NCBI GenBank assembly: GCA_945882915.1
Contig: CAMCWV010000004.1
Span: forward strand, 15,643-79,642
Origin: Waddlia chondrophila WSU 86-1044
GTDB lineage: Bacteria; Chlamydiota; Chlamydiia; Chlamydiales; CAMCWV01
DNA length: 64,000 bases
Reading direction: 5' to 3'
Shown: one piece after another, positions 2 to 51,840 of the stretch
How the letters are laid out: every line of letters starts with the position of its first letter
Numbering within the stretch: the first letter of the stretch is position 1
Notes under the pieces: generated by a model
The model's database searches: none
Told to the model about the DNA's origin: nothing
Seen by the model: the letters and a program-made list of their open reading frames with translations, nothing else
Made by a program: the position numbers and the translations under genes

Positions 2-2665
2 GAGAGCTTAAAGAAGCTAGAAGACAAAGTTCTTGTTGCGGCTAGGCGTTTTTTATGGGGAAAGCCTAAACAGGAGGAGCCTAAACAGGAGGAGCCTAAA
101 CAAAATCAGATGGAGCGGCTTAAAGGGTTTCAGAATGCTCTCATTAAAGGAAGAGCTCTTTTCTTGGAAAAAGATGAGGTCAGAGGGCTTGATTTAGGTG
201 GGAAGACGAAGGAGGCTCTCTTTACTTCTCTTGAAGCAAAGCTAAAGGCAGGTGCTTCTGACGCCATCGCTCATGTTTTAGATGGAATGAAGGAGCTGTC
301 TATGTTGGAGCGGGGGGATTTTTTGACAGACTTGCAAGAAAAGTATAGCAACGCTTCTAGCAACGCTTCTTATGACAGGTTTAGAGAGCAGGTTGCTGGG
401 GCGCAACCACGGAATAACCTTGAGAGCTCAGATAAGGTGCTTTTAAGAATATTGAGGGAAAAGGTAAAGGCCCCAACAGGGGAGGGCTCTGTAACGGTTC
501 CTTCTAGCTCCGCTTCCCCTTCCGAATTACCAAGAAAGAGTAAGAAGGGGCGTGATGAAGTCCTGAAAGGTCTTGAAGGTGCATTGAGGACGCCCCCACA
601 AAATGGAAACGAGGCTTTAGATCGTTTAGGAGGTTTGGTGTCTCATTTTGAAGGAGTGCGCCTTACAAAGCCTCTGACAACTATGGGGGAGAACTTGGAA
701 GGTGTAAAAGCCTCTCTGAATGCTTTTGCAGTCATTGCTGTTAATCAGCTTAAAGACCCAGCAATGACCCCTTCGCAGAAGCTGCAGCTCAGAAACGATT
801 GGAACGAAAAGCTTGCTGCGGTGCAAGCGGCTATTGCTCCAGCTGGAAAATCTGAGGACACTAGGGAAGTTGAGAAAGTGTTCACCGATTTGTTTGAAGG
901 GGTAGATGCCCTAATGCAAGCGGGGTTTAAAGAGCATATTAAAGAGGTGGCTGTGGCTCAGCAGCAAGCTGTTGCTAGTCGTGTTGCCGTTATAGCAGGA
1001 ACAGTAGGTGAAATTTTAAAGCATGAATTAGCTCGAGAGGCCTCTAAGGCTGTTAAAGATCGGGCGGTTGCTGCCCGGTGCGAAGCGTACCACGAAAGAA
1101 CGTATGGACTCGCTAGGGATATATTCTGTCAGAAGGGTTTTAAAGGGGCCTTTACTCTTAATAAATTAGAGGCATCTGTACACACTTGGCAAATGGATGC
1201 CCAAGCGATTGGGAATGCAGTCAAGGCTCATGATCCAGCAGCTGCGCCTCAATCAGTATTAAGACTTCCGCCGCAGCTTGCAGCTCAAAAGATGGCGTGG
1301 ACGACGAGTCGTGAAGAAGGCGCCGGGATCGCAAGAGATGTTTTTTCTAAAATATTAGTGGGAGGCTCTCGCTCTGGAGAGGAAGCTCTTTTAAATGAGC
1401 TTATTCAGGTTGAGTCGGGGGCGGCACAAACGTGTTGGACGCGGGCTGTTCAGAGTATGAGCGCGCCACCTGTGGAGGTCGAAAAGGCTTTTAATGAGGC
1501 TATGCAGGCTCCCTCTTTAGCAAGTGCCCGCAAGATGCGAGTAGCCGTTGATGAGACGCTGGCTGCTAAACAGGCGGAGGCAGCAGCACTTAAAGCTGTG
1601 CGCGGCGGCGTTATTAGTGCTGTTATTGAGAGGAAAGGGACTTTCGGTATTGGGAGTAAGTATGACCTTAGCGAAGAAACTCGCAAACAGTTAGCCACTC
1701 TTCAGGAGCAGCTTAAGGAGAATCAGGGAATGCTTGCTAGCCATGAGCGCGACCTAAACTTAGAGCAGGAGGGCATAGTGGCGGAAATGAGCGGGATCCT
1801 CGTTAGCGACAGGGGGCTTCCCACAGCAGCTGCTAGCCTATTAATGCAGTTTGGTGAAAGGATAGCCACTGCAGAATTGCAGATTGCTCGTCTGCGTGAG
1901 ATGGGGGATGCCTTCCTGAAGGAAGAACCAAGCTGGAGAGGGGCGTCCCCTAGCACACAACTGCTTGATGTGGCTATTCCTAAAAGTAAGGCTGAAACGG
2001 ATGCTGAGGAGAAGTTGGCGACAGCTAGTAGAGAAATAGTGGCGGAGGCCAAAAAAGAAGCAGCAGCCGTTGAAGCGCTTACTTTAGAGCTGATTAACGT
2101 CATTGCTCATACGAAGTTGGCAGATGACGCCAAGGTCGATGTATTTGAAGGGATAGGTGATAAAGAGATGCAGGCACTGGCTGCGGAGTTTATGAAGAGG
2201 GAGTCAACGGCTAATGGGCCTTTTGCTGAGGAGCTTGCAGAAAAGGCTCTTGAGTTTCTTAAGGGGAAGGTCAAAGTTCAAATGGCAGCGAATTTCCTTA
2301 AAGAAGCTGAGTCGAAAAAGGCTTTAGCCGATGGAGAGGCCTATCAAGGGAAAGATCCATTTCCAGAGACTCTTAAGATGCCTTTAGGCGATGTGATTAT
2401 CGCGATGCGTCAAGAGCTTTTAAATGGGGTTGAAAGCGACTCTCTTAGAGAGTATTTAACAAAACAAAGCAAGCCTTTAAAGTACTCTTCTGAGCAGAGG
2501 CGAATAGATGCTGAATATACAGCTGGCGCCCTGAAATATGCGGGCGAGGTGCTAAACGCTTATGTCGATCAGAGTGAAAGACGGTGGGTAAGTGCGATGA
2601 GTAGGGCAGTAAAATCTACGTCGAGACCCCTCCCCCGGATCAGCGTGGATAATAGCGCGGTATAG
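2..2665 (+). CDS. C-terminal portion of a large Ala/Glu/Lys-rich, probably coiled-coil protein of unknown function (5' end outside window)
   Basis: The track ORF begins at M110. Hand translation of 2-109 in the same frame (ESLKKLEDKVLVAARRFLWGKPKQEEPKQEEPKQNQ) has no stop, so the frame is open to the window edge. No catalytic or membrane motif recognised. Confidence 0.55.
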   Translation, partial: ESLKKLEDKVLVAARRFLWGKPKQEEPKQEEPKQNQMERLKGFQNALIKGRALFLEKDEVRGLDLGGKTKEALFTSLEAKLKAGASDAIAHVLDGMKELSMLERGDFLTDLQEKYSNASSNASYDRFREQVAGAQPRNNLESSDKVLLRILREKVKAPTGEGSVTVPSSSASPSELPRKSKKGRDEVLKGLEGALRTPPQNGNEALDRLGGLVSHFEGVRLTKPLTTMGENLEGVKASLNAFAVIAVNQLKDPAMTPSQKLQLRNDWNEKLAAVQAAIAPAGKSEDTREVEKVFTDLFEGVDALMQAGFKEHIKEVAVAQQQAVASRVAVIAGTVGEILKHELAREASKAVKDRAVAARCEAYHERTYGLARDIFCQKGFKGAFTLNKLEASVHTWQMDAQAIGNAVKAHDPAAAPQSVLRLPPQLAAQKMAWTTSREEGAGIARDVFSKILVGGSRSGEEALLNELIQVESGAAQTCWTRAVQSMSAPPVEVEKAFNEAMQAPSLASARKMRVAVDETLAAKQAEAAALKAVRGGVISAVIERKGTFGIGSKYDLSEETRKQLATLQEQLKENQGMLASHERDLNLEQEGIVAEMSGILVSDRGLPTAAASLLMQFGERIATAELQIARLREMGDAFLKEEPSWRGASPSTQLLDVAIPKSKAETDAEEKLATASREIVAEAKKEAAAVEALTLELINVIAHTKLADDAKVDVFEGIGDKEMQALAAEFMKRESTANGPFAEELAEKALEFLKGKVKVQMAANFLKEAESKKALADGEAYQGKDPFPETLKMPLGDVIIAMRQELLNGVESDSLREYLTKQSKPLKYSSEQRRIDAEYTAGALKYAGEVLNAYVDQSERRWVSAMSRAVKSTSRPLPRISVDNSAV
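65..102 (+). repeat. In-frame 15-bp tandem repeat cctaaacaggaggag x2.5 (encodes PKQEE-PKQEE-PKQ)
   Basis: Read directly: units at 65-79 and 80-94, partial unit at 95-102. Confidence 0.8.
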
Positions 2666-2672
2666 AGCTCTG

Positions 2673-2880
2673 CTGTAGGAGCCGAGCGAAGCGAGGCTCT
2701 TTGGAGTGCTGGGACTTGTCCTAGCTTTGTTAGGCCTCGACATGTCGAGGCCGTACGACGTAGTAGATTACAAAACTTTGTTGTAATAAAGACACTTATA
2801 CGACCTCGACATGTCGAGGTCTAACAAAGCTAGGACGAGTCCCAGCACTCCAAAGAGCCTCGCTTCGCTCGCTCCTACAG
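2673..2880. repeat. Family A nested palindromic element, copy A1
   Basis: ~78-bp inverted arms (ctgtaggagccgagcgaagcgaggctctttggagtgctgggacttgtcctagctttgttagg... and its reverse complement). Each arm ends in a perfect 20-bp palindrome (ggcctcgacatgtcgaggcc; gacctcgacatgtcgaggtc). Homologous copies at 35388-35568 and 43832-44019. Confidence 0.9.
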
Positions 2881-2900: not shown

Positions 2901-4727
2901 TTATTCAACGGTGACTGATTTGGCGAGGTTGCGGGGTTGGTCAATTTCGGTGCCGCGCTCTTTTGCGATGTAGTAGGCAAGAAGCTGCGTGGCCACTGTC
3001 GCAGGGATGGGGGCGAGCTCGTCGATTGTTCGTGGAACATGGATAAGGTCGTTTGCAATGGAATCAAGCCCTTCAGCCCCTTCGGGAGCAATCGCAATAA
3101 CCATTCCGCTTCGCGCCTTTACTTCCATCAAATTGCTTAACGTTTTTTCGTAGGTCAGCATGTCCCCGCAAAGGGCAATGGTGGGGCATTTTTCATTGAT
3201 AAGGGCAATAGGTCCATGCTTCAACTCTCCGGCAGGATAGCCGTTGGCGTTGATGTAGGAGATCTCTTTTAGCTTTAAGGCTCCTTCAAGACTCGCTGGA
3301 TACATGTAGCGGCGTCCCAAGAAGAAGAAATTGTCGTACTTCGCGTACTTCTTTGCTATTTTTTCGATTGCAGGGGCCTGCTCAAGAACCTTTTGCACTT
3401 GTTCGGGTAGGTTTCTAAGGGCGGCAATGAACTGCTGTCCTTTGGATTTGCTCATGCTGCGCATTCTGGCCATGAGGACGGTGAAAAGAGAGAGGACGAT
3501 GAGCTGGCTAGTGAAGGCTTTGGTCGAGCATACGCCAATCTCAGGTCCTGCATGGAGGAAAAGGCAGCTGCTGGCTTCTCTAGCAAGTGTTGAGCCTTGT
3601 ACGTTGCAAATCCCAAGGACCTTTGCCCCTTTGGCTTTGAGCTCGCGCATTGCTGCGATAGTGTCGGCAGTTTCCCCCGACTGGCTAATGGCAATTGCCA
3701 AAGTCCCCTCAGGGACGATGGGGTTCTTGTAGCGCAGCTCTGAGGCGATTTCTACTTGCGTGGGGATCCGTGCAAGGTCTTCGAGCATGTAAGCGGCGAC
3801 ATTTCCTGCGTGCCATGAGGTGCCGCAAGCAACGATAAGGATCTTTTTTACACCAAGTAGCTCTTCTTCTTCGAACTTTAACCCTTCGAGAGAGATCGTT
3901 CCGTAATCTTCAACAAAGCGTGAAAGGAGTGCGTTGCGAATTGTTTGAGGCTGCTCAAAGATCTCTTTTAGCGTGTAGTGCTCGTAGCTTCCTTTGGAGA
4001 TGTCAGAGATAGAAGTGTCGATGGAAGAGGTCTTTCTCATGACCTGCGCGCACGTTTGGTCAAAGATTTGCAGGCTGTCTGCTTTGACGATAGCAACTTC
4101 GCCCGCTTCTAAGAACAAAACTTCTCTTGTGTGGACGAGGAAGGCATTGCTGTCAGAAGAGATGAAAGTCTCGCCGTTGCCAACGCCAATGGCTATGGGG
4201 CACTCTTTAGCAGTAACAATGATTTGGTCAGGGTGAGACTTGTGGATGATGGCAAGAGCGTAGGCCCCTTTAAGCATCGGCACTACTTGTTGAATCGCTT
4301 TGAGAAGGTCCCCTTGATAGAGGCTTTGGATAAGGTGGGCAACCACTTCGGTGTCGGTCTCTGAGCGGAAGTTGACCCCATTTTTTTGGAGCATCTTCCG
4401 AAGGCTGTCATGGTTTTCGATGATCCCGTTGTGGACGATCGCCAGCGAGTGATCCATGTTAAAGTGCGGGTGGGCGTTCACTTGATTGGGCTTGCCATGT
4501 GTCGCCCATCTGGTATGGGCGATGGCGATATCAAGTGAGAGGTTGGTTCCTTGAATGAGTTTTTCTAGCTTAGAAACCTTTCCTTCTTCTTTGCAATAAG
4601 CGATCTTCCCCTGAAAGACTCCAGCAATACCTGCGGAGTCATAGCCGCGGTATTCGAGCTTCTTTAGTCCGGCAAGAGCTACGTCAACTGAATTTTGAGC
4701 CCCAATGTATCCAAATATGCCACACAT
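2901..4727 (-). CDS. glmS: Glutamine--fructose-6-phosphate aminotransferase
   Basis: 608 aa. N-terminal MCGIFGY (Ntn amidotransferase Cys), SIS-domain body, C-terminal AKSVTVE typical of GlmS. Lies 13 nt downstream of glmM on the same strand. Confidence 0.97.
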   Translation of the reverse strand: MCGIFGYIGAQNSVDVALAGLKKLEYRGYDSAGIAGVFQGKIAYCKEEGKVSKLEKLIQGTNLSLDIAIAHTRWATHGKPNQVNAHPHFNMDHSLAIVHNGIIENHDSLRKMLQKNGVNFRSETDTEVVAHLIQSLYQGDLLKAIQQVVPMLKGAYALAIIHKSHPDQIIVTAKECPIAIGVGNGETFISSDSNAFLVHTREVLFLEAGEVAIVKADSLQIFDQTCAQVMRKTSSIDTSISDISKGSYEHYTLKEIFEQPQTIRNALLSRFVEDYGTISLEGLKFEEEELLGVKKILIVACGTSWHAGNVAAYMLEDLARIPTQVEIASELRYKNPIVPEGTLAIAISQSGETADTIAAMRELKAKGAKVLGICNVQGSTLAREASSCLFLHAGPEIGVCSTKAFTSQLIVLSLFTVLMARMRSMSKSKGQQFIAALRNLPEQVQKVLEQAPAIEKIAKKYAKYDNFFFLGRRYMYPASLEGALKLKEISYINANGYPAGELKHGPIALINEKCPTIALCGDMLTYEKTLSNLMEVKARSGMVIAIAPEGAEGLDSIANDLIHVPRTIDELAPIPATVATQLLAYYIAKERGTEIDQPRNLAKSVTVE

Positions 4728-7672: not shown

Positions 7673-8482
7673 GTGAAGACACCTGTTGTAACAAGCTCTG
7701 AGCTGAAGACTCCTTGGGGATCTTCCATTCACTACGCAGGTCCAGGTCTTATGGCAGGTCTTATAGAACAGCCGCCTTTGCCAGCGTTTTTCTATTTTTC
7801 GCTCTCTGGACAGGCAAGCTTGACCCTAGACCCCTACAATCAGCCCGTAGCTTTTTTGCTAAAACAAAGCCAGCTATTAAATCGGCCAGTCCGTTGTTAT
7901 TCTCTGAATCTTCCCGGGCATGGAGAGCCAAAGTCATTTGAAGGGGCCATGAAGTTTTGGGCCTCTTCTTTTGCTAAAGAAGACATTATTCAGCTCTTTG
8001 TTAAAGAGGCTATAGAGTCCATTAGCTATCTGATTGATCAAGGGTATGTTGACCATAAACGTATTGCAGTAGGGGGGCTTTCTAGAGGGGGATTTGCCGC
8101 GTTGCATCTAGCAGCAGCAGATCCGCGCATTGGATCTGTGCTCGCTTTCGCGCCGCTACTTGATCTGGGGGTCGTCTCTGAATTTAAAGAGATTAAAGAC
8201 TCTCCGCTTGTTTGCGCGAGCTCTGCAGATCATTTGGTAGAGAAGCTCGTGAATCGGAATGTTCGACTCTATATTGGCAATCGAGATACGTGCGTTGGGA
8301 CAGAGCCTGCCTTTCGATTTATCCAGAAGCTTGCAGAGGCTGCTTATCACTCAAAGCCATCGGTCCGCTCTCCAAAGGCAGAGTTAATTATTGGCCCTTC
8401 TGTTGGGCATCAGGGGCATGGGACGCTTCCCCATGTATTCTTGGATGGAGCTGAGTGGATTATTAACATATACTCCTCGTAG
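7673..8482 (+). CDS. Alpha/beta-fold hydrolase (esterase/dienelactone-hydrolase-like), substrate unknown
   Basis: 269 aa from GTG. Nucleophile elbow GGLSRGG and C-terminal HQGHG. The last codons and stop (atatactcctcgtag) lie inside repeat D1. Confidence 0.6.
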   Translation: MKTPVVTSSELKTPWGSSIHYAGPGLMAGLIEQPPLPAFFYFSLSGQASLTLDPYNQPVAFLLKQSQLLNRPVRCYSLNLPGHGEPKSFEGAMKFWASSFAKEDIIQLFVKEAIESISYLIDQGYVDHKRIAVGGLSRGGFAALHLAAADPRIGSVLAFAPLLDLGVVSEFKEIKDSPLVCASSADHLVEKLVNRNVRLYIGNRDTCVGTEPAFRFIQKLAEAAYHSKPSVRSPKAELIIGPSVGHQGHGTLPHVFLDGAEWIINIYSS

Positions 8483-8540
8483 CTGAAAATGGGAATTTGG
8501 CGCCGTCCAAGTTCCCATTTTCAACTAAGAGAAGTATAAT
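8468..8540. repeat. Family D hairpin element, copy D1 (short variant)
   Basis: atatactcctcgtagctgaaaatgggaatttgg ... ccaagttcccattttcaactaagagaagtataat. Homologous to 35263-35360, 38482-38555 and the half copy at 27775-27804. Confidence 0.85.
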
Positions 8541-23000: not shown

Positions 23001-26000
23001 CGCCTTTGCCGTGCTTTCCAGTCTCTTGAAGAAGGGGTGCAGAAGGTAGTTAATCCAAAAGGGCTCTCTAAAGAGAAGCGGGAGCAGCTCCCATTGAAGA
23101 TTAAAGAGGCTCACTCTTTGATTACGCAGCAGCTTTCGTTGGCCCGTACCTACAAAGTGGACTCTTCACAGCTTTATTCACGCGCTTGTCTGATGATCGA
23201 GAATGTCAAAGGGTATGTTCTTCGCCCTGAGCAGGTGGAGGTGTTCTACGAGCTTTCTAGAGACCCTACCAAGGTGAAGCAGCTCATTATGGGGTCGGGG
23301 AAAACAGAGGTGGGGAACGTTGTCATCATGTTGATGTTGGCAATGGGGAACAATCTCCCACGCTGGATTGGGCCAAAAGCGCTCTTTAATGTTAATAGTA
23401 GAGATCTTGACAGCATTTGTCCTGAACACTTTGGGCAAGAGCTTTATCGGTTTGAATTCGAAAGGAACATGCTCAAGGATGCCGCCTCGGTACAGAAGAT
23501 CTATCACAGAGAGATGGAGACGATGGCGGGCCGTGGGTTTGCCATGAACACGCGGGAGAGCATGCAGTGCGCCGAGCTCTACTGGCTAAAGAACATTGAG
23601 GATCTTGAGAAGGCTCCTGTGGAGGCAACCGAGGATCTGGAGTCGCAAGACAAATATTTGACAGAGCTTTTGAAGATGTGGCGTAAACGAGGGTACATCC
23701 TCAACGACGAAGTCGATAGCGTAAACGATCCTACCCACCAGTACATTTTTGCGTGTGGCGCTTCTGAAAAGCTCGGCAAGCAGCCGATTAAGATCAATGC
23801 AGCACTTAATATGATGCGTTTGATTTTGAAAAACCAAGAGTGGAAAGAGCGGCTAAAAATCAAAAACAACCTCCAGCAGAACCTCTCTGAAAAAGATCAT
23901 GAAGAGCTGCGGCTGTTTGTTGCTAATTGCTTTTTTGATGAGTGTGTCACGAAAGGAAGTCTTAAAGAGGAAAATCGTGAAGAGTTCATCCTTTTTGTAA
24001 CAGGGGACCAGCGTACTGTTAAGATCCCTGCGTGTGTGACGCTCTCTCCAGACAAAGAGTTTTTTAAGGAGGTGGCTGTTGTTAAGACGCTGCTTACGAC
24101 AATTGTTGAAGGAGCTTTGAGCAAGAAAGGGAACGTCAACTACGGCCCTGAGATGTTTGAGGAGATGCAGAATGGGAAGAAAGTCTTCAGGAGAGGTCGC
24201 TGGGTTGTTCCTTATATTGCCCATGGAAAGCAAAGGCCAGGAAGCATCCACGGTAATGAGCTTGAAAGGATCATCTTCCACATCTTGAGTTATCTCCAGC
24301 TGGGGGTTACTTTCGATCAAATTAAAGAGAGGCGTGACACTCTTCAGGCTGAGGCAATTACCTTGAAGCAGTCAGAGCAGTACGCGCCGGGCGCGACCTC
24401 TCCTGAGCAGCAGTGGAGATCTTACGGCTGGACAGGAGAGGTCGCGCTTCTTGATGTTACAGATGAAGATCTTAGAGGTGTTGTAGAAACCCTCAACAGC
24501 ACAGAGGGGGATCTTGAGGAGGAGTCAATCCTGAAATACTTGGAGCAGGTGCTTCTTCCTGAAATGGAAATTCACGGCCAGACACTGGAAAGTAATTCTC
24601 AGAATTTTGGTGATCAGAATAGGTTCTTTGCGGGCTTCTCTGGAACTGTCGGCAAAATCTATGCCTTGAATGATAAGATCACTGAAAAGAGCAAGACGGC
24701 AAGGCTTGGGACAAACGGGGAGACTCTTGAGGCGATCCTTCGAAAGAGCAATAACGGAATGGATGAGGTTGACACCTATGGGGGTGAGACCGCAGAAGAG
24801 CGTGTTAAGGAGCTTTTAGAAAAGTGCAAGGGAGCCAACTTCTTTGTCGATGGAGGGGCGGCGCTTGACTGTACCGATCCTCAGGAGTTTGCTGCTCGCT
24901 GCGCTGAGGAGCAGTCTAAAATTGAGATCAGAGATCAAGCGCACAAGATTGTAGGGGTTGTCTTCTTCAATAAGGAAGATAGCTGGGTTGTTCAGTTTGT
25001 TGGGCAAGATCATCCAACGCCTGTTGAGGATGTAGGGGGTGTGGCTCTCAAGAACTTATTCACCCTTTATGACCATGGACACCGTATTGGGGCGCATAGG
25101 CTTCAAGATGCTTCAGCAGAGTTTGTGGCAACTGGGGGCGCTAAGACCGATTTTGAAGATGCCGCTCAGAGTTGGGCCCGTGCAAGGGGGCTTTGGACGA
25201 AAAAACAGAAGCCTAGACACCTTGTTTCAGATGAGACCAGAAAGCTTATTAAGGGCAAAGAGAGCAAAGAGCCTTTACTTGTCGGGGAGTATGTGGGGCA
25301 CCTCTTTGCCAACCAGGCAGATGAAGAGGCAAAGGCAAATTACAAAGCCTCGCGTCACAAGATCATGAATATCATGCGCAGCGCTCTTATTAGTTCACTT
25401 CTTGACGCTCCTGATGCGTACGCTAGAAGAGATCTTCTTAAGTGCTACAAAGAGCATCTTTTTAAGACGAGCTCAGAAAATTATATAGCGATGCTTCAGG
25501 TCGAGAAGATGGATACGCCAGAGAATGCGTTAAAAGCACTTATCGAAGCTGAGCAGGATAAGATCACGGGGATTTTGGGCGCTCTTCCAGAGCGTCTTCT
25601 TGGGGGGCAAGAAGGTCTTTTTAAGGCTGCATATCAGCGGCTTGAGGCCTATAAAGAGCCAAGTGCTACGGGAGATACTCCAGGGATTCTCCCGCCAGAA
25701 TTTTATCCTGAAAAAGTGCCGATGCACGAGTCTTCTGCCCAAACAGAGGTTACTGTTGAGCAAGAGCAAGAGGCCGAGCAAGAGGCAGAGGAGGAGCTTG
25801 ACCTCGAAACCAAGAAGCAGGTCGCCCAGAACAACTTTAAGAGCAAGTGGAAACCTTGGCTTACAACTGGAAGGTCATCTCCACTACTGTATAGATTCAT
25901 GTCTGAGACAACTTCGCAGCTTGATAGCAAGCTAGGGGATGAGTTTAAAGGGGTATTTGATAAGCGTGTGCTTTTCTCTCCAAATATGATTCCGCAAGGT

Positions 26001-26528
26001 GAAAGAGCTTTGTGGGGATACCAAAAGCCGATACATGATCTTTTGGTGGTATATGGTCTTTCTGGAAAAGCGTGGACGGTTATTGCCTGTGATGCCCTAG
26101 ACAAAGACCGGGAGCTAGAAGATCTATTTAAAAAGCACAAAGACCCTGATATTAAAATAGGGCACTACTCGATGCGTGAAAAGAAGATGCAGAGATGGAG
26201 TAACGCTTTTAGTGATGAGGAGCTTGGATCAGAAGGTTTCTTGAGGTTAACGGTGCAGTGTCACTTCTTTAATGCTGAGACTCATTACCAAGGGATAGTT
26301 GAAAAGGATTCTCGCAAAAACACAGAGTACTCTGTTCTTCAGAAATGGTTAAGCGAGCACCCGCATGACAAGATGATTAAGCTCTATAAGAGCTCGGCTG
26401 CAGTCTTCCGCGACAAAGCGCAGAAGTACGAGAAGAGTGTTCTTAGTAAAGGGTTTGCCTCCATCAAGAGCGTTCAAGAGGCCGAAATTTCAAGGCGTCA
26501 AGCTGAGCGCCTCTTAAAAAGGCCGTAA
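14085..26528 (+). CDS. Giant (4147 aa) multidomain protein of unknown function with a C-terminal-third P-loop NTPase module; candidate secreted/inclusion-membrane protein
   Basis: A single uninterrupted 12.4-kb frame. Hydrophobic blocks at nt 14508-14670 and 17358-17520. Walker A GSGKT at 23292-23306 and DEVD at 23706-23717. Acidic run EQEQEAEQEAEEE near the C-terminus. The start has no obvious SD. Confidence 0.85.
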   Translation: MKDRFAVGSFQDNMKQLYTAHIIHRQGDPNVEVAGKERLKRTQEISTFAVRHLIKAKALQSGDKIEVDEYYKKIRVSNKEKFKSFSFKELGILFDKGSPKSKHTDDALPQVTVEAFAESLVHNIPFAKSARLRYLKDAVLDRYAMFYFTDYLWDTWKMLSMNGLLWNMLSLPERIFHYGLAAINLLGYAYFSIRDLAKNKFPQLKREFTMWMFQRNKVPLSLIDAMEGVIQFLEMKRSQSAEYDQVINEYKACRRIALELEKIKGWTVPFQVSGVKRLAERQGKAISQLNEGQRHLVPGGVYKNGQFIPFLYEFERGMGEEKDKCLVRIIDVHGTFSSYQGSVQNEETGKLKAIPYISFTMDLARASNAEDVLQPLLELQLPAAYAEFKAPETIEMARAFLQTGLLKAADRVESLQDHWAIRRVGNYAIVPALKGLSGVTQVISNCFGFADLGSETLERILPELQKLDYPKNPEPDDPKLMKLAKQGKGAYKTAWALLKLRFPDQCARLQLELKYTVLCQLFENEKALLSKDAGARERAVIRECIQEWADLFEKSAPKLFANDDIQLQEVHGMNERLEGILQQIQKMEEGLVRPVKELVIPKRCVTTNHGSVGLSALAHVDGYAPIPAKSLAPIISRSVIDWAQGPSVSVAAFEGYLKEMDALCKKGDDHKWEAIDVAAVDLLRQLPIPTVGESIDPVWDSKMTPEQISHWQELVHRAREYVWKANHIRQTDGVTGVHAEALARSAAVSLKLAMRNKDVNMIGPVAGMDLSPFEAITDNKTFYFASKEQEDSVRGCLDFMREVNKLSEKEFPLSGIHLLNKSLGVGGIQDWREERALWIYVEAIYQKIHGVFDFDCALNPAERFKHLREVSTSLDYPRLPGVKKHLSTLKAVLQKLPPKDYTEIAKLKTLLERLPQAFEFTGEDAAIEGKLKALSDELNLLREQLKIKKDIPLTSIGKMYPREISQVTGGEAKKFYELQQKAEILADLGEKGYNHPDITHLRLCDLQLKTMLSNRNCYYERGVMGLSKEAAFQAYGIARGEVRLDKFSKDFEATRRRFISYAMSKKGEPYFSFRREGNTQSFIDYLASYKWGLDFFLLSTGLSLGNTFMAGGIKALLMEILRLIFSLEFWALGGIFGSSWLIYRNMYGHALVRADVMCEPYGLCLGSWDHHRYDFARSRDAEGIGKPYGGSGDDAFNRTRVIREDVVGFRIGADDYDPWTAEKTEQKVIADAERIGELTLEQSRDLQRTRLNAAEIGEVLDYYSDNPLLLEEGPHQHLLERALTRYGKMTEALGRQPELVARFNRFFSKQLNWARMGQKVQEQLFLARLSERVNTYISDNDVAKIVFHALPKEGGEAEIGTAVLRVLGELERDQTLGRSRSSLNTELLRKLQENARLLADQTGRLAREAKEARSALSVRIAELEGEIRRVLAAQAAQTAGGFQIYSRNKPDPLEAEFASLRLKQEDASARLAPGVASAQLEFVKGLDRFGDDIEGLSKEMLEDLENSKLQEAVIALQDLLKKVREGIPNRLLSKQILDQCVKQCRDGTAAYLKHLVPIHAHIIAAYASYSEAELQSLGTEELLSVIKSFFVVRGAEEDAAHRDPVFNDSVNEAVLKLMPIFKGRLSDDATKEPLLNAILRAVHPEATDQKWEGTSTFFTCKDWEIDIANGRVYHQGYLKTELPYSVLKNEGVLRLFGGGPIPCKLQCSQNSYNKSQVRKFTFEKGGDHYSIIQRADESIAIYKEILNIHTGVQSWHQWIHQEMQGEESKVASAEDRAGRRTLPKPVTDNICWVDCDQPAHFLICDEGGKELYRGTLRGKSIYSLYNLKYPEGENTVLRVWGNKSSLEALTRIAPPEQIEVLGTAEGAPKTIVYHNYNQSFSIDEEGIAHSGNDAHFVLTDKQKLNVRGLGSHFQHFQVVKHDEDQIERVLIPASEIAQTVNSLSAQAVGMGVDAVTGIATGGRTPQQALGNMQKQLANVAKTELIKQGLWLIFKTYMGSRLSAFFGPDTDSKAETPEVTFKYQSQSDLLAFEIDPYDRRFKTKNKESYLYLSYMFLAYGKHKEALYYLKQAKTSLAWSDKAKDYIRLMQQWPDDSAASKAFKLQLELMFCENQMSLLGDDLKKKDTSFKGMRTYITLMGLQVRYEEYQEIEKKLPGDLHLTSGDKRVYMELLSQLATITGQKPKPTVPIIPLAEETVDPSSITPPHLDFGGNPLLDMRKKFSSTLYYAQESKRSSRSTLTTKIKFGDEGFKVRAGRELIRNFDVYLNIATTKNPGDKEFDDLCKRLDLMGDKIKEVQMARWYLHVATELRRKGEGLSSIKLPEFKFEYETKNQRDQRAGVLPSVAQPGGFWEKSPAASPSGMFLGRVKDSFSWAWDRIKKYTFWQAYSLVSTSELDSRYRQELVDDIDKVCGELDSLARHNGIGSVKKRPPRGGARPVVEAQSEVQLLAGKAEARRKLQERAAGNSNLGGVIQGLGGLDSLGGFLQQVISQGAHGITSIQQMIPVPFRPLLSGKTETLHRIEEALDGILEKAEEVLAKIPGSTRDQKRDALMQWLKMQVSGLGDNPTAKMIWAVTGPALGIDLEVAGLIVEAYSESIIQGILLVLDTRTPSAVKRHWRAAMDKEIDLHSEHLKRLDAVEEALNKCVKQKIPSWEGIFTTRGVEMSREDYFHLDTGIPKLAADAFKKEWRFGLDKVARGEVARGELNPEKVEIQVIRNRVRTELGDYLCGKRTLPPKWLFNPEAKDLFESVIFLHEQLQERLPGFLCPVIVAQEKELLFDVLKTASLIPQEVQLECITIEQVNKYFENLKTSWTGPGGTIPPHRKRVLDREWTDAQHTITEKKAKAQTEGFKLPIPKTAVEAHSQLGEIKILRDQAIEKGQELQKKAEDSRTKALRLINDPPLTPLKQAYQDLHVLVDKHEEVFFPEVKRLWLQGRLFDLCKKNPQLTHENLAELEGFVTEHLQAGNEAVQAQRLCRAFQSLEEGVQKVVNPKGLSKEKREQLPLKIKEAHSLITQQLSLARTYKVDSSQLYSRACLMIENVKGYVLRPEQVEVFYELSRDPTKVKQLIMGSGKTEVGNVVIMLMLAMGNNLPRWIGPKALFNVNSRDLDSICPEHFGQELYRFEFERNMLKDAASVQKIYHREMETMAGRGFAMNTRESMQCAELYWLKNIEDLEKAPVEATEDLESQDKYLTELLKMWRKRGYILNDEVDSVNDPTHQYIFACGASEKLGKQPIKINAALNMMRLILKNQEWKERLKIKNNLQQNLSEKDHEELRLFVANCFFDECVTKGSLKEENREEFILFVTGDQRTVKIPACVTLSPDKEFFKEVAVVKTLLTTIVEGALSKKGNVNYGPEMFEEMQNGKKVFRRGRWVVPYIAHGKQRPGSIHGNELERIIFHILSYLQLGVTFDQIKERRDTLQAEAITLKQSEQYAPGATSPEQQWRSYGWTGEVALLDVTDEDLRGVVETLNSTEGDLEEESILKYLEQVLLPEMEIHGQTLESNSQNFGDQNRFFAGFSGTVGKIYALNDKITEKSKTARLGTNGETLEAILRKSNNGMDEVDTYGGETAEERVKELLEKCKGANFFVDGGAALDCTDPQEFAARCAEEQSKIEIRDQAHKIVGVVFFNKEDSWVVQFVGQDHPTPVEDVGGVALKNLFTLYDHGHRIGAHRLQDASAEFVATGGAKTDFEDAAQSWARARGLWTKKQKPRHLVSDETRKLIKGKESKEPLLVGEYVGHLFANQADEEAKANYKASRHKIMNIMRSALISSLLDAPDAYARRDLLKCYKEHLFKTSSENYIAMLQVEKMDTPENALKALIEAEQDKITGILGALPERLLGGQEGLFKAAYQRLEAYKEPSATGDTPGILPPEFYPEKVPMHESSAQTEVTVEQEQEAEQEAEEELDLETKKQVAQNNFKSKWKPWLTTGRSSPLLYRFMSETTSQLDSKLGDEFKGVFDKRVLFSPNMIPQGERALWGYQKPIHDLLVVYGLSGKAWTVIACDALDKDRELEDLFKKHKDPDIKIGHYSMREKKMQRWSNAFSDEELGSEGFLRLTVQCHFFNAETHYQGIVEKDSRKNTEYSVLQKWLSEHPHDKMIKLYKSSAAVFRDKAQKYEKSVLSKGFASIKSVQEAEISRRQAERLLKRP

Positions 26529-26594
26529 GCCCCTCTAACCGCTCTAAATAAAAATCGCGGAAGCGAAGCTCTTTGAGTTGCCGCAAAAATCAAA

Positions 26595-26684
26595 CAGGGG
26601 CCTGAAAGGTCCTAATGTTACAGCGGGAAGCCTTCCGCTAACGCTTCGACCTCAGGCTGTAACATTAGGACCTTTCAGGCCCTT
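26595..26684. repeat. Family B palindromic element, copy B1 (short variant)
   Basis: caggggcctgaaaggtcctaatgttacagc ... gctgtaacattaggacctttcaggccctt. The arms match B2 at 51575-51789. Confidence 0.85.
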
Positions 26685-26706
26685 GTTCAATTAATGTGTT
26701 CAGCTC

Positions 26707-26982
26707 GGCATTGCCCGCGTAATTGCAATTGCAGCCTTACAGGCTGCATGGGATATATTCGCTTATACCCAGGGCGCTGCCCTGGGCTATGTGCATTTTC
26801 AGCCCTTCAGGCTGAAGCTGGGGAGCTGAGGCGCTTTTAGTTAAAGCCTTTTGCATAAAGTCTCAGCCTGTAAGGCTGAAAATGCACACAGCCCAGGGCA
26901 GGCGCCCTGGGTATAGGCAAATATATTTTACGCAGCCTGTAAGGCTGCTACTCTTAGGGGGCTGTAATTATGCAATAATGCC
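26707..26982. repeat. Family C nested palindromic element, copy C1 (full length)
   Basis: Termini ggcattgcccgcgtaattgcaatt / ctgtaattatgcaataatgcc. Local hairpins gcagccttacaggctgc, cccagggcgctgccctggg and agcccttcaggct, each mirrored in the right half. Homologs at 55650, 63076, 50189 and 61065. Confidence 0.9.
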
Positions 26983-30912: not shown

Positions 30913-33897
30913 ATGGAGAGAGGTAACATGGCTAATAGGCAAAGACGAGTATTAAATCTTCCGCTTCGCATTTTGAGCGGGCTGTTGCTCCTTGCAGCTT
31001 GGTGCTTGTTTATTATTCAACCTGTGTCTTTGGAGGCAGCTGCAATGGGGTATGTTCTTGTTGATGACTTGGCGAAAACGCCGATTCTCACCCCATCTCT
31101 AGCAGGAAGAGAGATAAAAAAAATTCGTCTTGATAATGAGCTGGAAGCTTATTTGATCTCGGATCCTACTGCAAAGCAGTCAGGCGCTGGTCTTTCTGTG
31201 ATGGCGGGAAGCTGGGATGACCCTGAGGATTCTGGCGGAATGGCCCACTTTTGTGAGCATATGCTCTTTCTTGGAACTAAAAAGTATCCTGGAGAGGAGG
31301 AATATCAAACCTATATTAACGGGCATTGCGGGCAGGTAAACGCCTACACGGCAAGCGATCACACCACGTTTATGTTTTCGGTTGCAAATGAAGCTTTTGC
31401 TGGCAGTGACGGCGCCTTAGACAGGTTCGCTCAGTTTTTTATTAGCCCTCTGTTTAACGAGTCTGCTGTAGAGCGCGAGATGAATGCCGTAGACTCTGAG
31501 TATGCAAAAGATTGTCAAATTGATGCTTACCGCACCTATTATGTTCAAAGGAGTCTTGGAAACAGCGCGCATCCTCAGGCGCGCTTTGATATTGGAAGGA
31601 TGAGTACACTCCAGAAGATCAAGCGGGAGAAGCTTCAGGAGTGGTACGCCGCGCATTACAGCGCCAACTTGATGCATCTTGTTGTTTATTCAAAGCTCCC
31701 TATGAGCGAGCTGCTCCCTCTTGTTGTCTCCGATTTCCAGGGAGTTAAAAATAATGGGGCAAAGCCTGCCGTGGTAGATGTTCCGATCCTTTCTTCTAAG
31801 CAGATGGGGCACATTCTCTACGTTAAACCCCTTAAACAGCTCCGTACAGTTACTTTGACATGGGAGGTTCCTGTTGGCCTTATCGACATCAAAACACAGC
31901 CAGATCGTATTGTAGGCTATATATTGGGTGACGAGAGGGAGGGCTCACTTTTAGATCAGCTAAAAGCAGAAGGGTTGGCAGAGAAATTGGGCGCTGGAAG
32001 CTCAAAGCTTGGCTCCCATTCTATGCTCTTTGATTTGCAGGTTGGGCTTACTGAAGAGGGAATTAAAAAGATCGACACCGTGATCTTGCGCTGCTTTGAG
32101 GCAATCGCCTTTTATCGCAGCAACGAGATCCCTCCTTATATGTTTAAAGAAATGCACGATATGGCAAAGTTGCACTACCAGTACCAGTCGCGAGATGAGG
32201 TCTTTAAAATGGTCTCTAGCTATGCGGAAGGGGTTGTGCGTGAAGATCTGACGACATTTCCTGAACGGCTAACGACTCCAGAGTCTTTTGATGCCATGCA
32301 GGTTAACAAGTTTTTGCAGGGGCTTGCTCCAGAAAAGTGCATGATCACTGTTGTGGTAGACCCTAAGGAAACGGGTGTGGAAACGTCGGAAACAGAACAA
32401 TGGCTTTGCGGAGAGTATGCTGTGCAGGCGGTTTTAGAAGGGACGCTTAAAGAATGGCAGGAGGCTAAGCCTTCCACCTTCGTTCGGAATCCTTCTCCTA
32501 ACAGCTTGATTCCTGAAAATTTGACGCTTCTCCAAAAGACTTTAGAGCCAAACCTCTATCCTCAGCCTATTTTAATTGCGGATGAAGAGCGGGCTAGAGT
32601 CTTCTTTGCACGCGACACAAACTATTTGGTTCCTGAGGTGGCATGGGTCTTTAACATTAAGACTCCTGCAATTCGTCCAGGAGATCCCCGTTCAATGGTT
32701 CTTACAGAGCTTTATTTGCGCGCGCTTTCAGAAAAGCTTTCTACTTTTTCTTACATGGCTCAGATGGCGGGGCTGGAGTATTCTCTTGGAATTTCCGAGG
32801 GAGGAGTTCGGCTGTCTATTCGTGGATACAGCGAGAAGGCCTCTGCTTTATTAGAGGAGGTTCTCAAGAGCTTTAAGAGTATTTCTCTGACCCGTGAAGA
32901 GTTTAAGATTTACCATCAGTCTCTTTTAATGTCTTATACGAGTGCAAAAAACGAAGAGCCTGTTCAGCAGGCAATCGAGAGGCTCCAGAGTGTTATTCAC
33001 AAGAGGTTTGTGACAGCCAAAGCAAAAGCACGGGTGATGGCTGACGTGACTCTTGATAGCCTAGAGAAATTTGCTCACAGGCTTTTTGTGACCTCTTATA
33101 TTGAGGGGATCCTCTATGGGAATATGGAAGAGGCTCAGGCGCGTGATGTTGTAGGGAAAGTGCTAACAGCACTTCCCGGGCATCCTTACCCGATAAGCAA
33201 GCAGTTTAAGGATAAAGTAATCGTCCTTCCAAAAGAGGGCGGGCCGTTTGAGTTTGTTGAAGAAATTAAGATCCCTCAGACAGCGGCTATTCTCGTTATT
33301 CAAAGCGAGCCTTATTCTTTAAAAAATAGAGCCTTGCAGCAGGTCCTTGGGCAGGGATTGCAATCTGACTTTTACGACACGCTCAGAACAAAGCAGCAGA
33401 CCGGATACATCGTTCAGAGCTGGGAGCAGGAGATGGAGCGGCAGCTGTTTTATTTCTTTGCCGTGCAGTCAAACAGTCAAGATGCGCGTAGCTTGTTGAT
33501 GCGTTATGAGTTCTTCTTCGAGAACTATCTTCAGGATATTGAGAAAAAAGCCTTTCCAAAAGAACGTTTTGAGCAAATCCAAAAAACATTGGTTGTTGAG
33601 CTTGGTCAGCTTCCTAATACATTGCAGGATATGGCTGATCGGTTGTTTAGCTTCGCTTTTAAGTATGATGGGGATTTCGATTGGATGAAGAAGCGTTTAG
33701 AGGCGATGAAAGAGATGACATACGAAGAGTTTATAGCGGGCGTAAAAGATGTTCTCGGCAGAGAAAACAAGCGCCGTTTTGCGGTATTGTTGCAAGGAGC
33801 GCTTCCTCAGGCATCGCTTAGCTATCACCCGCTTAAGAGCGTTGAGGAGCTTCGCAAAGTTAGCCACTACCTCGCTAAACCACCAGGAGTGCAATGA
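30913..33897 (+). CDS. ptr: M16 (insulinase/pitrilysin) family zinc metalloprotease with N-terminal signal/anchor
   Basis: 994 aa. Inverted zinc motif HFCEHMLFLGTKKYP (HxxEH). Hydrophobic N-terminus LRILSGLLLLAAWCLFII. The alternative start at MANRQRR is equally possible. Confidence 0.9.
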   Translation: MERGNMANRQRRVLNLPLRILSGLLLLAAWCLFIIQPVSLEAAAMGYVLVDDLAKTPILTPSLAGREIKKIRLDNELEAYLISDPTAKQSGAGLSVMAGSWDDPEDSGGMAHFCEHMLFLGTKKYPGEEEYQTYINGHCGQVNAYTASDHTTFMFSVANEAFAGSDGALDRFAQFFISPLFNESAVEREMNAVDSEYAKDCQIDAYRTYYVQRSLGNSAHPQARFDIGRMSTLQKIKREKLQEWYAAHYSANLMHLVVYSKLPMSELLPLVVSDFQGVKNNGAKPAVVDVPILSSKQMGHILYVKPLKQLRTVTLTWEVPVGLIDIKTQPDRIVGYILGDEREGSLLDQLKAEGLAEKLGAGSSKLGSHSMLFDLQVGLTEEGIKKIDTVILRCFEAIAFYRSNEIPPYMFKEMHDMAKLHYQYQSRDEVFKMVSSYAEGVVREDLTTFPERLTTPESFDAMQVNKFLQGLAPEKCMITVVVDPKETGVETSETEQWLCGEYAVQAVLEGTLKEWQEAKPSTFVRNPSPNSLIPENLTLLQKTLEPNLYPQPILIADEERARVFFARDTNYLVPEVAWVFNIKTPAIRPGDPRSMVLTELYLRALSEKLSTFSYMAQMAGLEYSLGISEGGVRLSIRGYSEKASALLEEVLKSFKSISLTREEFKIYHQSLLMSYTSAKNEEPVQQAIERLQSVIHKRFVTAKAKARVMADVTLDSLEKFAHRLFVTSYIEGILYGNMEEAQARDVVGKVLTALPGHPYPISKQFKDKVIVLPKEGGPFEFVEEIKIPQTAAILVIQSEPYSLKNRALQQVLGQGLQSDFYDTLRTKQQTGYIVQSWEQEMERQLFYFFAVQSNSQDARSLLMRYEFFFENYLQDIEKKAFPKERFEQIQKTLVVELGQLPNTLQDMADRLFSFAFKYDGDFDWMKKRLEAMKEMTYEEFIAGVKDVLGRENKRRFAVLLQGALPQASLSYHPLKSVEELRKVSHYLAKPPGVQ

Positions 33898-35243
33898 ATC
33901 TTTTAGTTATAGGGACAGGATATGTAGGCCTTGTCACAGGGACTTGTTTTGCAGAAATGGGGCATCATGTTGTTTGCTTAGACGTAGATAAGCCTAAAAT
34001 TAGGGGGCTTCAGCAAGGGCGTGTCCCTTTTTTTGAGCCAGGGCTAGAAGCTCTTGTAAAGCGCAACGTACAGGCCAAAAGACTTGCCTTTACGACAAGC
34101 TATGTAGAAGGGCTCTCTCAGTCGCTTGTGTGCTTTTTAGCTGTCCCTACACCCTCAGCAGAGGATGGCTCAGCAGATCTTTCTTATCTCGAAGCTGCAC
34201 TAGGTCAGATTGCCTCTCACATGAACGATTATAAGATTCTTGTCGTCAAGTCTACTGTTCCCATTGGGACTGGCGCGCATGTCAAACAGTTCATGCAAAA
34301 GCTTCTGTGTGTCAGGAGGACTACTGCGGAGTTTGATGTTGTTTCCAATCCCGAGTTCTTAAAAGAAGGGGATGCTGTTCAGGATTTTATGAAGCCTGAT
34401 CGGGTGATTTTAGGTGTTGATAATCCGCGTGTTGAGGCGTTGATGAGGGAGCTTTATTCTCCGTTTACGCTTAGCCATGAGCGGGTGATTGTGATGGATA
34501 TTCCCTCTGCAGAAATGACTAAATATGCCGCTAACGTTATGCTCGCAACGCGCGTTTCTTTAATGAACGAGCTGGCTGGGCTTTGTGAGCTGACAGGGGC
34601 AAATATTTGTAAGGTTCGTTCGGGAATTGGTGCAGATCAGCGCATCGGCTACAAGTTCCTCTATCCAGGAGTGGGATATGGGGGCTCTTGCTTCCCCAAG
34701 GACATCCGAGCATTGAAAGCCAAGGGAGAATCTCTTGGTTATAAGATGGCGATCATTACTGCTGCTGATGAGGTCAATAACAGGCAGAAGCATCTGATGG
34801 GAAAAAAGGTGGCCGCCTACTTTGCTGAAAAAGGGGGGCTTAATCAGAAGACGATTGCTCTTTGGGGGCTTGCCTTTAAGCCAGAGACCGATGACATGCG
34901 TGAGGCTCCATCGTTAACATTGATAGAGTATCTTTTGGGGCAAGAATGCAGTCTTCGGTTGTACGATCCGGTCTCTATGGAGAATACCAAAAAGATTTTG
35001 GGGGCTCACTCTAGTATCACTTGGTGTGTAGATGAGTTTGACGCTGCTTCTGGAGCTGACGCTGTCGTTTTGATGACCGAGTGGAAGCAGTTCCGGTTTG
35101 TTGACTTTGCTCCTGTTCTAGCTAAGATGAAAGGGCATGCCTTTTTTGATGGAAGAAACCAATATAAGCCTGCAGATATGGCTAAAAAGGGCTTCGACTA
35201 CATCAGCATCGGCAAGCCCTCAGCCGTCGCCGCCAAGAAGTAG
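33894..35243 (+). CDS. ugd: UDP-glucose 6-dehydrogenase
   Basis: 449 aa. Rossmann motif VIGTGYVGLVTGTCFAEMGH and catalytic GGSCFPKD. ATGA overlap with the ptr stop. Confidence 0.95.
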   Translation: MNLLVIGTGYVGLVTGTCFAEMGHHVVCLDVDKPKIRGLQQGRVPFFEPGLEALVKRNVQAKRLAFTTSYVEGLSQSLVCFLAVPTPSAEDGSADLSYLEAALGQIASHMNDYKILVVKSTVPIGTGAHVKQFMQKLLCVRRTTAEFDVVSNPEFLKEGDAVQDFMKPDRVILGVDNPRVEALMRELYSPFTLSHERVIVMDIPSAEMTKYAANVMLATRVSLMNELAGLCELTGANICKVRSGIGADQRIGYKFLYPGVGYGGSCFPKDIRALKAKGESLGYKMAIITAADEVNNRQKHLMGKKVAAYFAEKGGLNQKTIALWGLAFKPETDDMREAPSLTLIEYLLGQECSLRLYDPVSMENTKKILGAHSSITWCVDEFDAASGADAVVLMTEWKQFRFVDFAPVLAKMKGHAFFDGRNQYKPADMAKKGFDYISIGKPSAVAAKK

Positions 35244-35262: not shown

Positions 35263-35360
35263 ATATACTCCTCGTAGCTGAAAACGGGAACTTGAACGGC
35301 GCCAAAGCCCCGGGGCTTTGGCGCCGTTCAAGTTCCCGTTTTCAACTACGAGGAGTATAT
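35263..35360. repeat. Family D element, copy D3: 98-bp near-perfect palindrome
   Basis: 49-nt arms atatactcctcgtagctgaaaacgggaacttgaacggcgccaaagcccc / ggggctttggcgccgttcaagttcccgttttcaactacgaggagtatat. There is a single mismatch (C opposite A). Confidence 0.95.
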
Positions 35361-35387: not shown

Positions 35388-35568
35388 GGAGTGAGCGGGG
35401 CGAACTCTTTGGAGTGCAGGGACTTGTCCTAGCTTTCATTAAGCGGGACATGTCCCGCTTAAGACACATAGGTATGCTTGCTAAGGTTCAGAGGGCTCGA
35501 CATGTCGAGCCCTAATGAAAGCTAGGACAAGTCCCAGCACTCCAAAGAGCTACGCTACCGCTTGCTCC
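35388..35568. repeat. Family A nested palindromic element, copy A2
   Basis: Outer arms ggagtgagcggggcgaactctttggagtgcagggacttgtcctagctttcatt / aatgaaagctaggacaagtcccagcactccaaagagctacgctaccgcttgctcc. Inner palindromes ttaagcgggacatgtcccgcttaa and agggctcgacatgtcgagccct. Confidence 0.9.
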
Positions 35569-35632
35569 TTAAGCGGGGCCTGAGCTAAACGTTGTTAATC
35601 ACGCAGAGGCCCTTAAAACGCGGCCTTTCCCC

Positions 35633-51558: not shown

Positions 51559-51574
51559 CCCGCAAAATTCAAAT

Positions 51575-51789
51575 AGGGGCCTGAAAGGCCTTAATATTAC
51601 AGCCCAGGTCGAAGCGTTAGCGTAAGGCCTGGGTAAGACGAAGTATTCAATCTGAGTCCTGTAAGGACGGTAGAAATTGAAGTTATTAACTATGCCGTCC
51701 TTACAGGACTCAGGGGTTTATTGCATTTTACCCAGGCCTTACGCTAGCGCTTCGGCCTGGGCTGTAATATTAAGGCCTTTCAGGCCCCT
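51575..51789. repeat. Family B nested palindromic element, copy B2 (full length)
   Basis: 62-nt arms aggggcctgaaaggccttaatattacagcccaggtcgaagcgttagcgtaaggcctgggtaa and its complement, with 2 mismatches. An inner palindrome gagtcctgtaaggacgg...ccgtccttacaggactc lies at 51653-51712. Confidence 0.92.
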
Positions 51790-51840
51790 GCTTAATTTTT
51801 GAGGAAGCTTCAAAGTCTTGCCTGAGCAGAGGCTCTAAAT

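Follow-up and report, generated by a model that had tools for sequence, protein, structure and literature searches.

How can a short palindrome change its sequence from copy to copy and still be a perfect palindrome in each of them? The question is raised by a 64,000-nucleotide stretch of contig CAMCWV010000004.1 (hereafter the window, to which all coordinates without a locus name refer), which contains three copies of a nested repeat that we call family A, each with two inner palindromes centred on ACATGT. A preliminary description, made from the letters of the stretch alone, had observed that the stems of these palindromes differ while every change on one half is mirrored on the other, and had attributed this either to selection for the hairpin or to a process that copies one half from the other. 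We examined five copies (A1 to A5) from about 90 kb of one species, A1 to A3 lying in the window and A4 and A5 on metagenome contigs. On balance, the data favour the view that the ACATGT stem-loops of functional copies are under selection. We tentatively interpret family A as a REPIN-like element of about 190 bp, extragenic, non-coding and present in several copies, a reading to which we give slightly less than even weight and in which membership in the REPINs themselves is unproven.

Matched variation in the ACATGT hairpins

The six inner palindromes of the window were exactly as first listed, perfect over 20-24 bp and with stems of 7-9 bp on each side of ACATGT. The two hairpins of A1, GGCCTCG-ACATGT-CGAGGCC (2733..2752) and GACCTCG-ACATGT-CGAGGTC (2802..2821), differ from each other by a mirrored G:C to A:T change. 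The 3' (right) hairpin of A2, AGGGCTCG-ACATGT-CGAGCCCT (35492..35513), has an 8-bp stem, and the 5' (left) hairpin, TTAAGCGGG-ACATGT-CCCGCTTAA (35439..35462), has a 9-bp stem that is the most divergent of all, as had been noted, and has only the loop and the closing G:C pair in common with the other hairpins. A3 carries CCCCTCG-ACATGT-CGAGGGG (43891..43910) on its 5' side and GGACTCG-ACATGT-CGAGTCC (43942..43961) on its 3' side. Approximately 24 stem pairs fall at positions that vary between hairpins, and all of them are complementary (naive chance estimate 4^-24). Chance would yield 0.01 occurrences of CGACATGTCG and 0.46 of GACATGTC; the counts are 5 and 6, and GACATGTC is confined to family A elements.

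Two further copies and two short alleles were found by walking outward from the window via exact-protein look-ups, which added about 25 kb. A4 lies at L027:12686-12846, about 5 kb to the left of the window, and has decayed: its hairpin GGACCCG-ACATAT-CGAGTCC contains one uncompensated T:G pair and a mutated loop, its second hairpin has been severed through the loop by a deletion between GTC repeats, and the copy adjoins half an element of a different palindromic repeat, family B. A5 (L032:5078-5268) is intact and carries GCCCTCG-ACATGT-CGAGGGC together with GGACTCG-ACAAGT-CGAGTCC, in which the stem is perfect and the loop altered. The claim that every change is matched held for all six window hairpins and failed beyond the window, at the T:G pair and loop of A4 and at the loop of A5. 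A3, A4 and A5 form a subfamily: the 3' hairpin stem GGACTCG is common to all three, and the 5' hairpin stem, CCCCTCG in A3 and GCCCTCG in A4 and A5, differs by a mirrored C:G to G:C change of the outermost pair.

Covariation was evaluated over nine complete hairpins, six from the window and three from A4 and A5. All 63 stem cells held standard pairs (62 Watson-Crick and one T:G), and changes on both sides were present at five of the seven stem positions, in 13 doubly changed cells. None of 500 shuffles matched any of the main covariation measures, and when the partner was slid by one column, pairing fell to 50-60%. Because stems are inherited within the subfamily (GGACTCG in A3, A4 and A5; GCCCTCG in A4 and A5), the double changes that arose independently number about 8-9 rather than 13. 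Stems that differ and remain self-complementary, together with strong covariation over nine hairpins, rule out neutral decay as the explanation, in agreement with the preliminary description. Frequent uncompensated changes in new copies, the pattern which that description had set against its own proposal, were not seen: a single one of the 21 new stem pairs was non-Watson-Crick, and this T:G pair belongs to the truncated and decaying A4. The variation is also unevenly distributed, the loop being ACATGT in seven of the nine hairpins, the four loop-proximal pairs (CTCG/CGAG) invariant or nearly so, and the three bottom pairs freely variable.

The perfection of the stems is by itself a weaker signal than it appears, since the long arms of the element are also about 93% complementary (202 matches and 16 mismatches over all copies). 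The difference between inner stems and arms over all copies (1/63 versus 16/218 mismatches) was not significant (p = 0.13), and a higher perfection of the inner hairpins relative to the arms is accordingly not claimed in general. The difference reached significance only in A2, A3 and A5, with no mismatch in 45 inner stem pairs versus 15 in 164 arm pairs (one-sided Fisher p = 0.023). In these three copies the two inner hairpins are unlike each other and each is self-complementary, which implies that it is local and not long-range pairing that is kept.

The pair of alternatives originally proposed, selection for the hairpin or half-to-half copying, was supported as a pair, and the evidence tilts to the first while five copies are still compatible with the second. 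Copying would symmetrise the stems by mutation without any selection, one half being rewritten from the other by intrastrand template switching (quasipalindrome correction) or by arm-to-arm conversion. The stems in the window agree with such a process in being strictly Watson-Crick and in showing transversion-type double changes (G:C to C:G) with no wobble intermediate. Mirrored copy-specific differences are found in the long arms as well (the A1 arms differ at 2 positions, and a CCAACGC specific to A3 is present in both of its arms), and likewise in the arms of family B, CCTCGTAG versus CCGCTTAG, each mirrored. However, a general palindrome-perfecting process would have erased mismatches that persist close by. 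The arm hairpin GCTGGGAC-TT-GTCCTAGC, which lies 20 nt away and has an even shorter loop, retains the same G:T mismatch (A:C on the other arm) in A1, A2 and A5 and a second mismatch in A2, and the hairpins of neighbouring families are imperfect, e.g., GGGGCC-TGAAA-GGTCCT. The T:G pair of A4 was left uncorrected, and the sole mismatched ACATGT hairpin is the one in this truncated copy. Nor does copying account for a conserved loop and upper stem next to three variable bottom pairs. For these reasons we favour selection and regard symmetrisation by copying as unlikely.

The symmetry could also be a property of duplex DNA, with CTCGACATGTCGAG serving as the operator of a dimeric protein or ACATGT as a restriction-modification target, two per element. 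The 14-bp core is indeed a perfect dyad that is kept in five of the six window hairpins, and ACATGT is a palindromic hexamer of the type II kind, the one recognised by PciI. Yet the binding of a dimer gives no reason for mirror symmetry in variable flanking pairs that it does not contact, the A2 5' hairpin keeps its symmetry without the 14-bp core, and the sites are located at gene 3' ends rather than promoters. The preliminary description had suggested a comparison with restriction-modification motifs. Outside the elements ACATGT is neither avoided nor enriched (9 sites versus 7.8 expected for the whole window), and no methylase or nuclease gene was identified among the annotated open reading frames (ORFs). 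We consider a duplex site extremely improbable.

Just as little credit can be given to an origin of the symmetry in the target, according to which a small module was inserted into the centre of existing palindromes and the variable stem bases are the old target. Outer nesting is real, as A5 lies within 26-bp inverted flanks resembling the outer arms of another family, and family A copies adjoin both family B and a further family typified by the repeat at 51560. What decides here is that the same variable stems (GGACTCG in A3, A4 and A5; GCCCTCG in A4 and A5) recur at different loci, and that GACATGTC is never found outside family A. The recurrence implies that the variable stems belong to the element and not to its target, which largely excludes this explanation for the inner hairpins.

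Architecture, folding and loss of family A

Each copy is about 180-200 bp long and forms a nested palindrome, in which two inverted half-elements flank a polar spacer. A half-element comprises, in order, the outer arm, the imperfect arm hairpin inside that arm, and the perfect ACATGT hairpin. The outer arms are inverted, about 55 nt long, and have the consensus TTAAGGAGCGAGCGGTAGCGAAG-CTCTTTGGAGT-GCTGGGAC-TT-GTCCTAGC-TTTGTTA. The arm core CTCTTTGGAGT with the arm hairpin and the following TTTGTTA (2697..2725, + strand) gave six matches versus 0.02 expected, its inverted repeats lying at 2829-2857, at 35405-35433 / 35521-35549 and at 43853-43871 / 43980-43998. The A1 arms are paired at 53 of 54 positions, plus one indel; the arms of A2, A3 and A5 differ within a copy by 7-9 positions, which is about the same as the divergence of arms between copies. 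The spacer measures 29-49 nt and is non-palindromic, and A2 to A5 have GCTTGCTA..GGTTnAGnG in common, which gives the element a polarity; in A2 the spacer motif CTTGCTA is on the + strand. Two readings of the arm core were dropped. By eye, the GG/GC spacing was off by one for a sigma-54 promoter, and the half-sites stood in the wrong order and at the wrong distance for a CIRCE-like element. A resemblance to ISL3-like terminal repeats (GGCTCTT...) was unsupported by any target duplication.

When treated as single-stranded DNA, the elements are predicted to fold far better than shuffled sequences (A1, z = -24 and -100.5 kcal/mol; A2, z = -13.5; A3, z = -18). The near identity of the two inner palindromes of A1 makes this copy fold into a single long hairpin. 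In A2 and A3 the fold is a clover or junction with each inner hairpin formed separately, and the minimum-energy DNA fold of A3 is a four-way junction. On these predictions the element can adopt two forms, a single long hairpin or a clover of independent small hairpins.

Loss of the core together with one arm was observed at two sites. At the site of A1, L028 and L029 lack 176 bp; this allele was found in two samples processed with two assemblers and is accompanied by three linked single-nucleotide polymorphisms in the adjacent gene. At the site of A5, L030 lacks 160 bp that are present in L032 and L033. Both losses are bounded by RGCTC 5-mers, of which one marks the inner edge of an outer arm and the second the outer edge of the opposite arm, so that a solo arm is left. 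Since every copy has two outer arms, the best reading of the short alleles is that a full element was deleted, rather than that they are empty target sites. They could have been caused by replication slippage over the base of a strong hairpin or by an asymmetric excision made by an enzyme. No flanking direct repeats of the kind left by target-site duplication were found at the ends of any copy, the flanks being inverted instead.

The surroundings of the copies contain further traces of the family. An outer-arm piece, GAAGCGAAGCTCTTTGAGTTGC, read from the sequence at 26559..26580 (+), stands alone, abuts the palindromic repeat at 26580, and is probably the remnant of a lost copy. The metagenome-assembled genome (MAG) contig CANFFS010000048.1 (L023:6866-6897) tracks A3 to CTCCAAAGAG and then continues with a different outer arm and flank (GTTCGCTTACGCTTCCGCTCCGGGCATGCTAA); this switch is an assembly chimera and reveals at least one further family A copy elsewhere in the genome. 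A5 is flanked by 26-bp inverted sequences that are complementary at 23 of 26 positions (L032:5051-5081 and 5261-5297) and are like the outer end of the 51560-type repeat (51559-51571 in the window), so that A5 is a family A element nested at the centre of another palindromic family. At the junction between the right end of A2 and its flank (35569..35577, +) there is a direct copy of the A2 5' stem TTAAGCGGG, and the right flank of A2 also has AGCGGGGC in common with the left arm. A stem-to-flank match of this kind is absent in the other copies.

All five copies are intergenic. A1 (2678..2880), a complete nested palindromic element, is situated between the convergent ORFs 110..2665 (+) and 2901..4727 (-, GlmS); A2 (35388..35568, +) between a UDP-glucose dehydrogenase gene (33894..35243, +) and a 922-aa acyltransferase/AMP-binding ORF (35633..38401, -); and A3 (43832..44020, +) between a 1661-aa ORF (38779..43764, +) and an inorganic pyrophosphatase gene (44022..44717, -). 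These three start 13-145 nt past one stop codon and end 1-65 nt from the other.

The placement near both stop codons of convergent genes speaks for what is the most serious rival of our interpretation, a role in host RNA. Family A would then be a symmetric 3'-end cassette, acting as a bidirectional terminator or mRNA stabiliser, and the ACATGT hairpins would be RNA stem-loops with ordinary RNA covariation. With the TTTGTTA that follows it, the arm hairpin points inward on both strands, and it is flagged as terminator-like twice in A1 (on both strands) and once in A2 (on the - strand), versus 0.3-0.4 expected; the same arm hairpin, here perfect and followed by TTTTG, is present at a locus of Pirellulaceae (L007). 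Moreover, the non-Watson-Crick pairs that are wobble-compatible, five T:G or G:T pairs in the arms and in A4, are all on the analysed strand, and no A:C or C:A pair is found there. Against this, the inner ACATGT hairpins lack T tails, A3 yields no terminator-like site, and A5 lies upstream of a gene in the opposite orientation. A search of Rfam at gathering and at permissive thresholds gave no match to family A, only sub-threshold microRNA-like matches to the family B hairpin being obtained. Stems of RNA normally contain G:U pairs, of which only one would be counted among the 63 stem cells, and the wobble excess is compatible with the pronounced GC skew seen on the leading strand. Moreover, insertions are simply tolerated in convergent intergenic regions, and a host function does not account for sister strains that have lost the element with nothing in its place. 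We therefore judge an RNA role unlikely.

A REPIN-like element and its possible reader

REPINs, described in P. fluorescens SBW25 and E. coli, are composed of two inverted repetitive extragenic palindromic (REP) sequences about a spacer (PMC3116915, PMC8266576). Compensatory changes in their hairpins are common, a clover fold has been proposed as the form recognised by the RAYT protein, excisions are asymmetric and leave part of one end, and solo REPs are viewed as remnants (PMC3116915). In the group 3 REP/TnpAREP systems, which have perfect palindromic REPs, the loop bases are crucial for cleavage, exchanging the three bottom stem positions for their complements is tolerated or makes cleavage better, and a single stem mismatch nearly abolishes it (PMC8266576). 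This biochemistry coincides with the conservation pattern of the family A hairpins and supports the REPIN-like reading. Matched hairpin variation has already been described for REPIN-type elements (PMC3116915). The preliminary description read the hairpins correctly and missed their placement as modules of a REPIN-like nested element.

The resemblance extends to the whole of the element. Like a REPIN, family A consists of short inverted palindromic units around a less conserved spacer and can form a long hairpin or a clover; it is multi-copy, extragenic and often clustered with other repeats; it shows no target-site duplication, it accumulates compensatory changes, and its short alleles, which keep one arm, resemble the asymmetric excisions of REPINs. 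We propose that a protein specific for hairpins would recognise the ACATGT stem-loops in the form of folded single-stranded nucleic acid, with DNA rather than RNA as the probable substrate. The likeliest reader would be an HUH/Y1 single-strand transposase of the RAYT or IS200/IS605 type encoded elsewhere in the genome, and the element may be mobile at present. Such a reader would require the loop, the loop-proximal pairs (CTCG/CGAG) and unbroken pairing, and would leave the identity of the three bottom pairs free. The bottom pairs would drift by matched double changes in active copies, and dead copies such as A4 would decay.

Several points weigh against this interpretation. At about 190 bp family A is roughly double the length of described REPINs (about 70-110 bp), and it has three levels of palindrome, namely the outer arm, the arm hairpin and the ACATGT hairpin. 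The GTAG tetranucleotide that is typical of REPs is absent 5' of the hairpin foot, the place being taken by GTTA, ATTA, ATCG or ATTG, and GTAG is encountered in family A only at the outer ends of A1. Neither the window nor the approximately 25 kb of same-species flanks contains a gene for a RAYT, an IS200/IS605 or any other transposase, and family A further differs from known REPINs in its chlamydia-like host and in the few copies seen. Replication slippage from one 5-bp repeat to the other, where a strong hairpin has its base, would account for the short alleles equally well and needs no enzyme. The stems in the window, being Watson-Crick perfect with no series of G:T intermediates, also fit copying, and the interpretation as a whole is built on five copies.

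Relatives were sought in several collections. A blastn search with A1 found no match among plasmids and phages, a chimeric query that joined all six frames of the conserved arm matched nothing in a protein collection, and a search for paralogues within the window found none. Scans for the exact 19-mer CTCTTTGGAGTGCTGGGAC in genome, metagenome and viral collections revealed no further family A copies. They gave 14 matches, about half of which look like chance occurrences in coding-like DNA; the remaining ones are short non-coding relatives in Pirellulaceae MAGs and on one metagenome contig (L004:975-1250 and 1-236; L007:3168-3230; L018:2584-2746). These relatives are palindromic elements of about 60-250 bp that are built on the same plan, with the arm core CTCTTTGGAGTGCTGGGAC..AGCTTT, extended similarity and unrelated interiors. 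The conserved GGAGTGCT...AGCTTT encloses a small hairpin whose stem, GGGAC/GTCCC versus CCGAG/CTCGG, changes and is still self-complementary, and two L004 copies differ in the hairpin that they carry at one internal position (TGGCA..TGCCA versus GACATCAC-GTGATGTC). In the vicinity of the Pirellulaceae and metagenome relatives no transposase was found, only housekeeping genes.

Other systems in which hairpins or inverted arms matter agree with family A less completely. The palindrome-associated elements derived from IS200/IS605, which are mobilised by TnpA as single strands ("peel and paste"), similarly have subterminal perfect or near-perfect DNA hairpins that are recognised as structure, as is proposed for family A, do not need terminal inverted repeats, produce no target duplications and possess strand polarity. 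In contrast to family A, they are not globally palindromic, and their insertion takes place 3' of a tetra- or pentanucleotide of fixed sequence, for which the only, putative, candidate in family A is the RGCTC 5-mer at the deletion borders. Classical MITEs (DDE-transposase-derived miniature inverted-repeat transposable elements), such as the Correia elements and the MITEs in PMC10969869, are likewise short, non-coding and intergenic, have inverted arms and sometimes act as terminators. Family A differs from them in having no direct target-site duplication, in that no parent insertion sequence with the same ends was found in the DNA examined or by the 19-mer scans, and in that the borders of the strain-level indels do not match the ends of the inverted arms. 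The attC sites of integrons share with family A a variable sequence and a conserved single-stranded DNA fold, and a protein reads them as hairpins, as is proposed for family A; unlike family A, each is one imperfect hairpin that has extrahelical bases and conserved R'/R'' boxes and adjoins gene cassettes and an integrase. Family A works like a REPIN without being filed as one, and on present evidence no new class of mechanism is called for.

A more far-reaching version of the REPIN-like reading would regard family A and its Pirellulaceae relatives as hairpin-structured mobile DNA spread throughout the Planctomycetes-Verrucomicrobia-Chlamydiae (PVC) superphylum, moved by a single-strand enzyme as yet unknown, with the variable base of the ACATGT stem serving as a programmable specificity element. 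It is hinted at by the recurrence of the A2 5' stem at the end-flank junction of A2 itself and by the break of both short alleles at the same RGCTC position. We regard it as very unlikely; if it were true, the chlamydiae would possess a guide-like, sequence-addressed hairpin transposon.

Host genome and neighbouring repeats

The genes of the window are housekeeping genes, and the nearest named relatives of two of them belong to Candidatus Rubidus, Parachlamydiales, Waddliaceae and Chlamydiales at 55-65% identity. Outside the species, the closest pyrophosphatase reaches only about 65% identity, which makes an orthologous comparison in a sister species impossible. The gene order peptidase M16 / acyltransferase / RNase E-G and an LpxB with a LAB_N domain fit a chlamydia. 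The host is therefore a deep-branching, uncultured Parachlamydiales-like bacterium for which no close sister species has been sequenced. Among the ORFs of the window, the one at 14085-26528 (4147 aa, with a DUF3638 domain) belongs to the giant proteins that environmental chlamydiae typically have. The ORF next to A1 encodes 851 aa in the window (110-2665) versus 985 aa in L027:8063-11020, and the window product has no exact match; this points to a difference in the start, a frameshift, or a truncation at the edge of the window. GC skew is positive over the entire window (1-64000; 0.07-0.17), which indicates that the whole window lies on one replichore and that the + strand is the G-rich strand.

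Family A is not the only repeat of this kind. A family B element, a near-perfect hairpin of 98 bp, lies directly upstream of A2 (35263-35360), and shorter relatives are located at 8469-8538 and 38481-38556. In this family a difference specific to one copy is found, mirrored, on either arm (CTCC-TCGTAG versus CTCC-GCTTAG), so family A is not alone in its matched variation. Further large nested palindromic repeats are present at 26580-26948, 51560-51804 and 63110-63332 and contain small hairpins centred on CCTGTAAGG, CCTTACAGG or CCTGAAAGG. Their stems are variable (GCAGCC/GGCTGC, TCAGCC/GGCTGA, GAGTCC/GGAC..), and several are imperfect. Palindromic elements of this sort crowd the intergenic DNA of the genome. 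Short-read contigs of the same species end inside family B, and repeats of this type break short-read assemblies of the host, as contigs terminate within them.

Parachlamydiales-like bacteria are not a group known for REPIN-type repeats. Family A offers a clean small example of a constraint on structure only, in which the loop and upper stem are fixed and the bottom three pairs are free to change as long as they match. Together with the two asymmetric strain-level deletions, this makes it a natural system for asking whether the PVC superphylum has REPIN-like elements and a hairpin-reading transposase.

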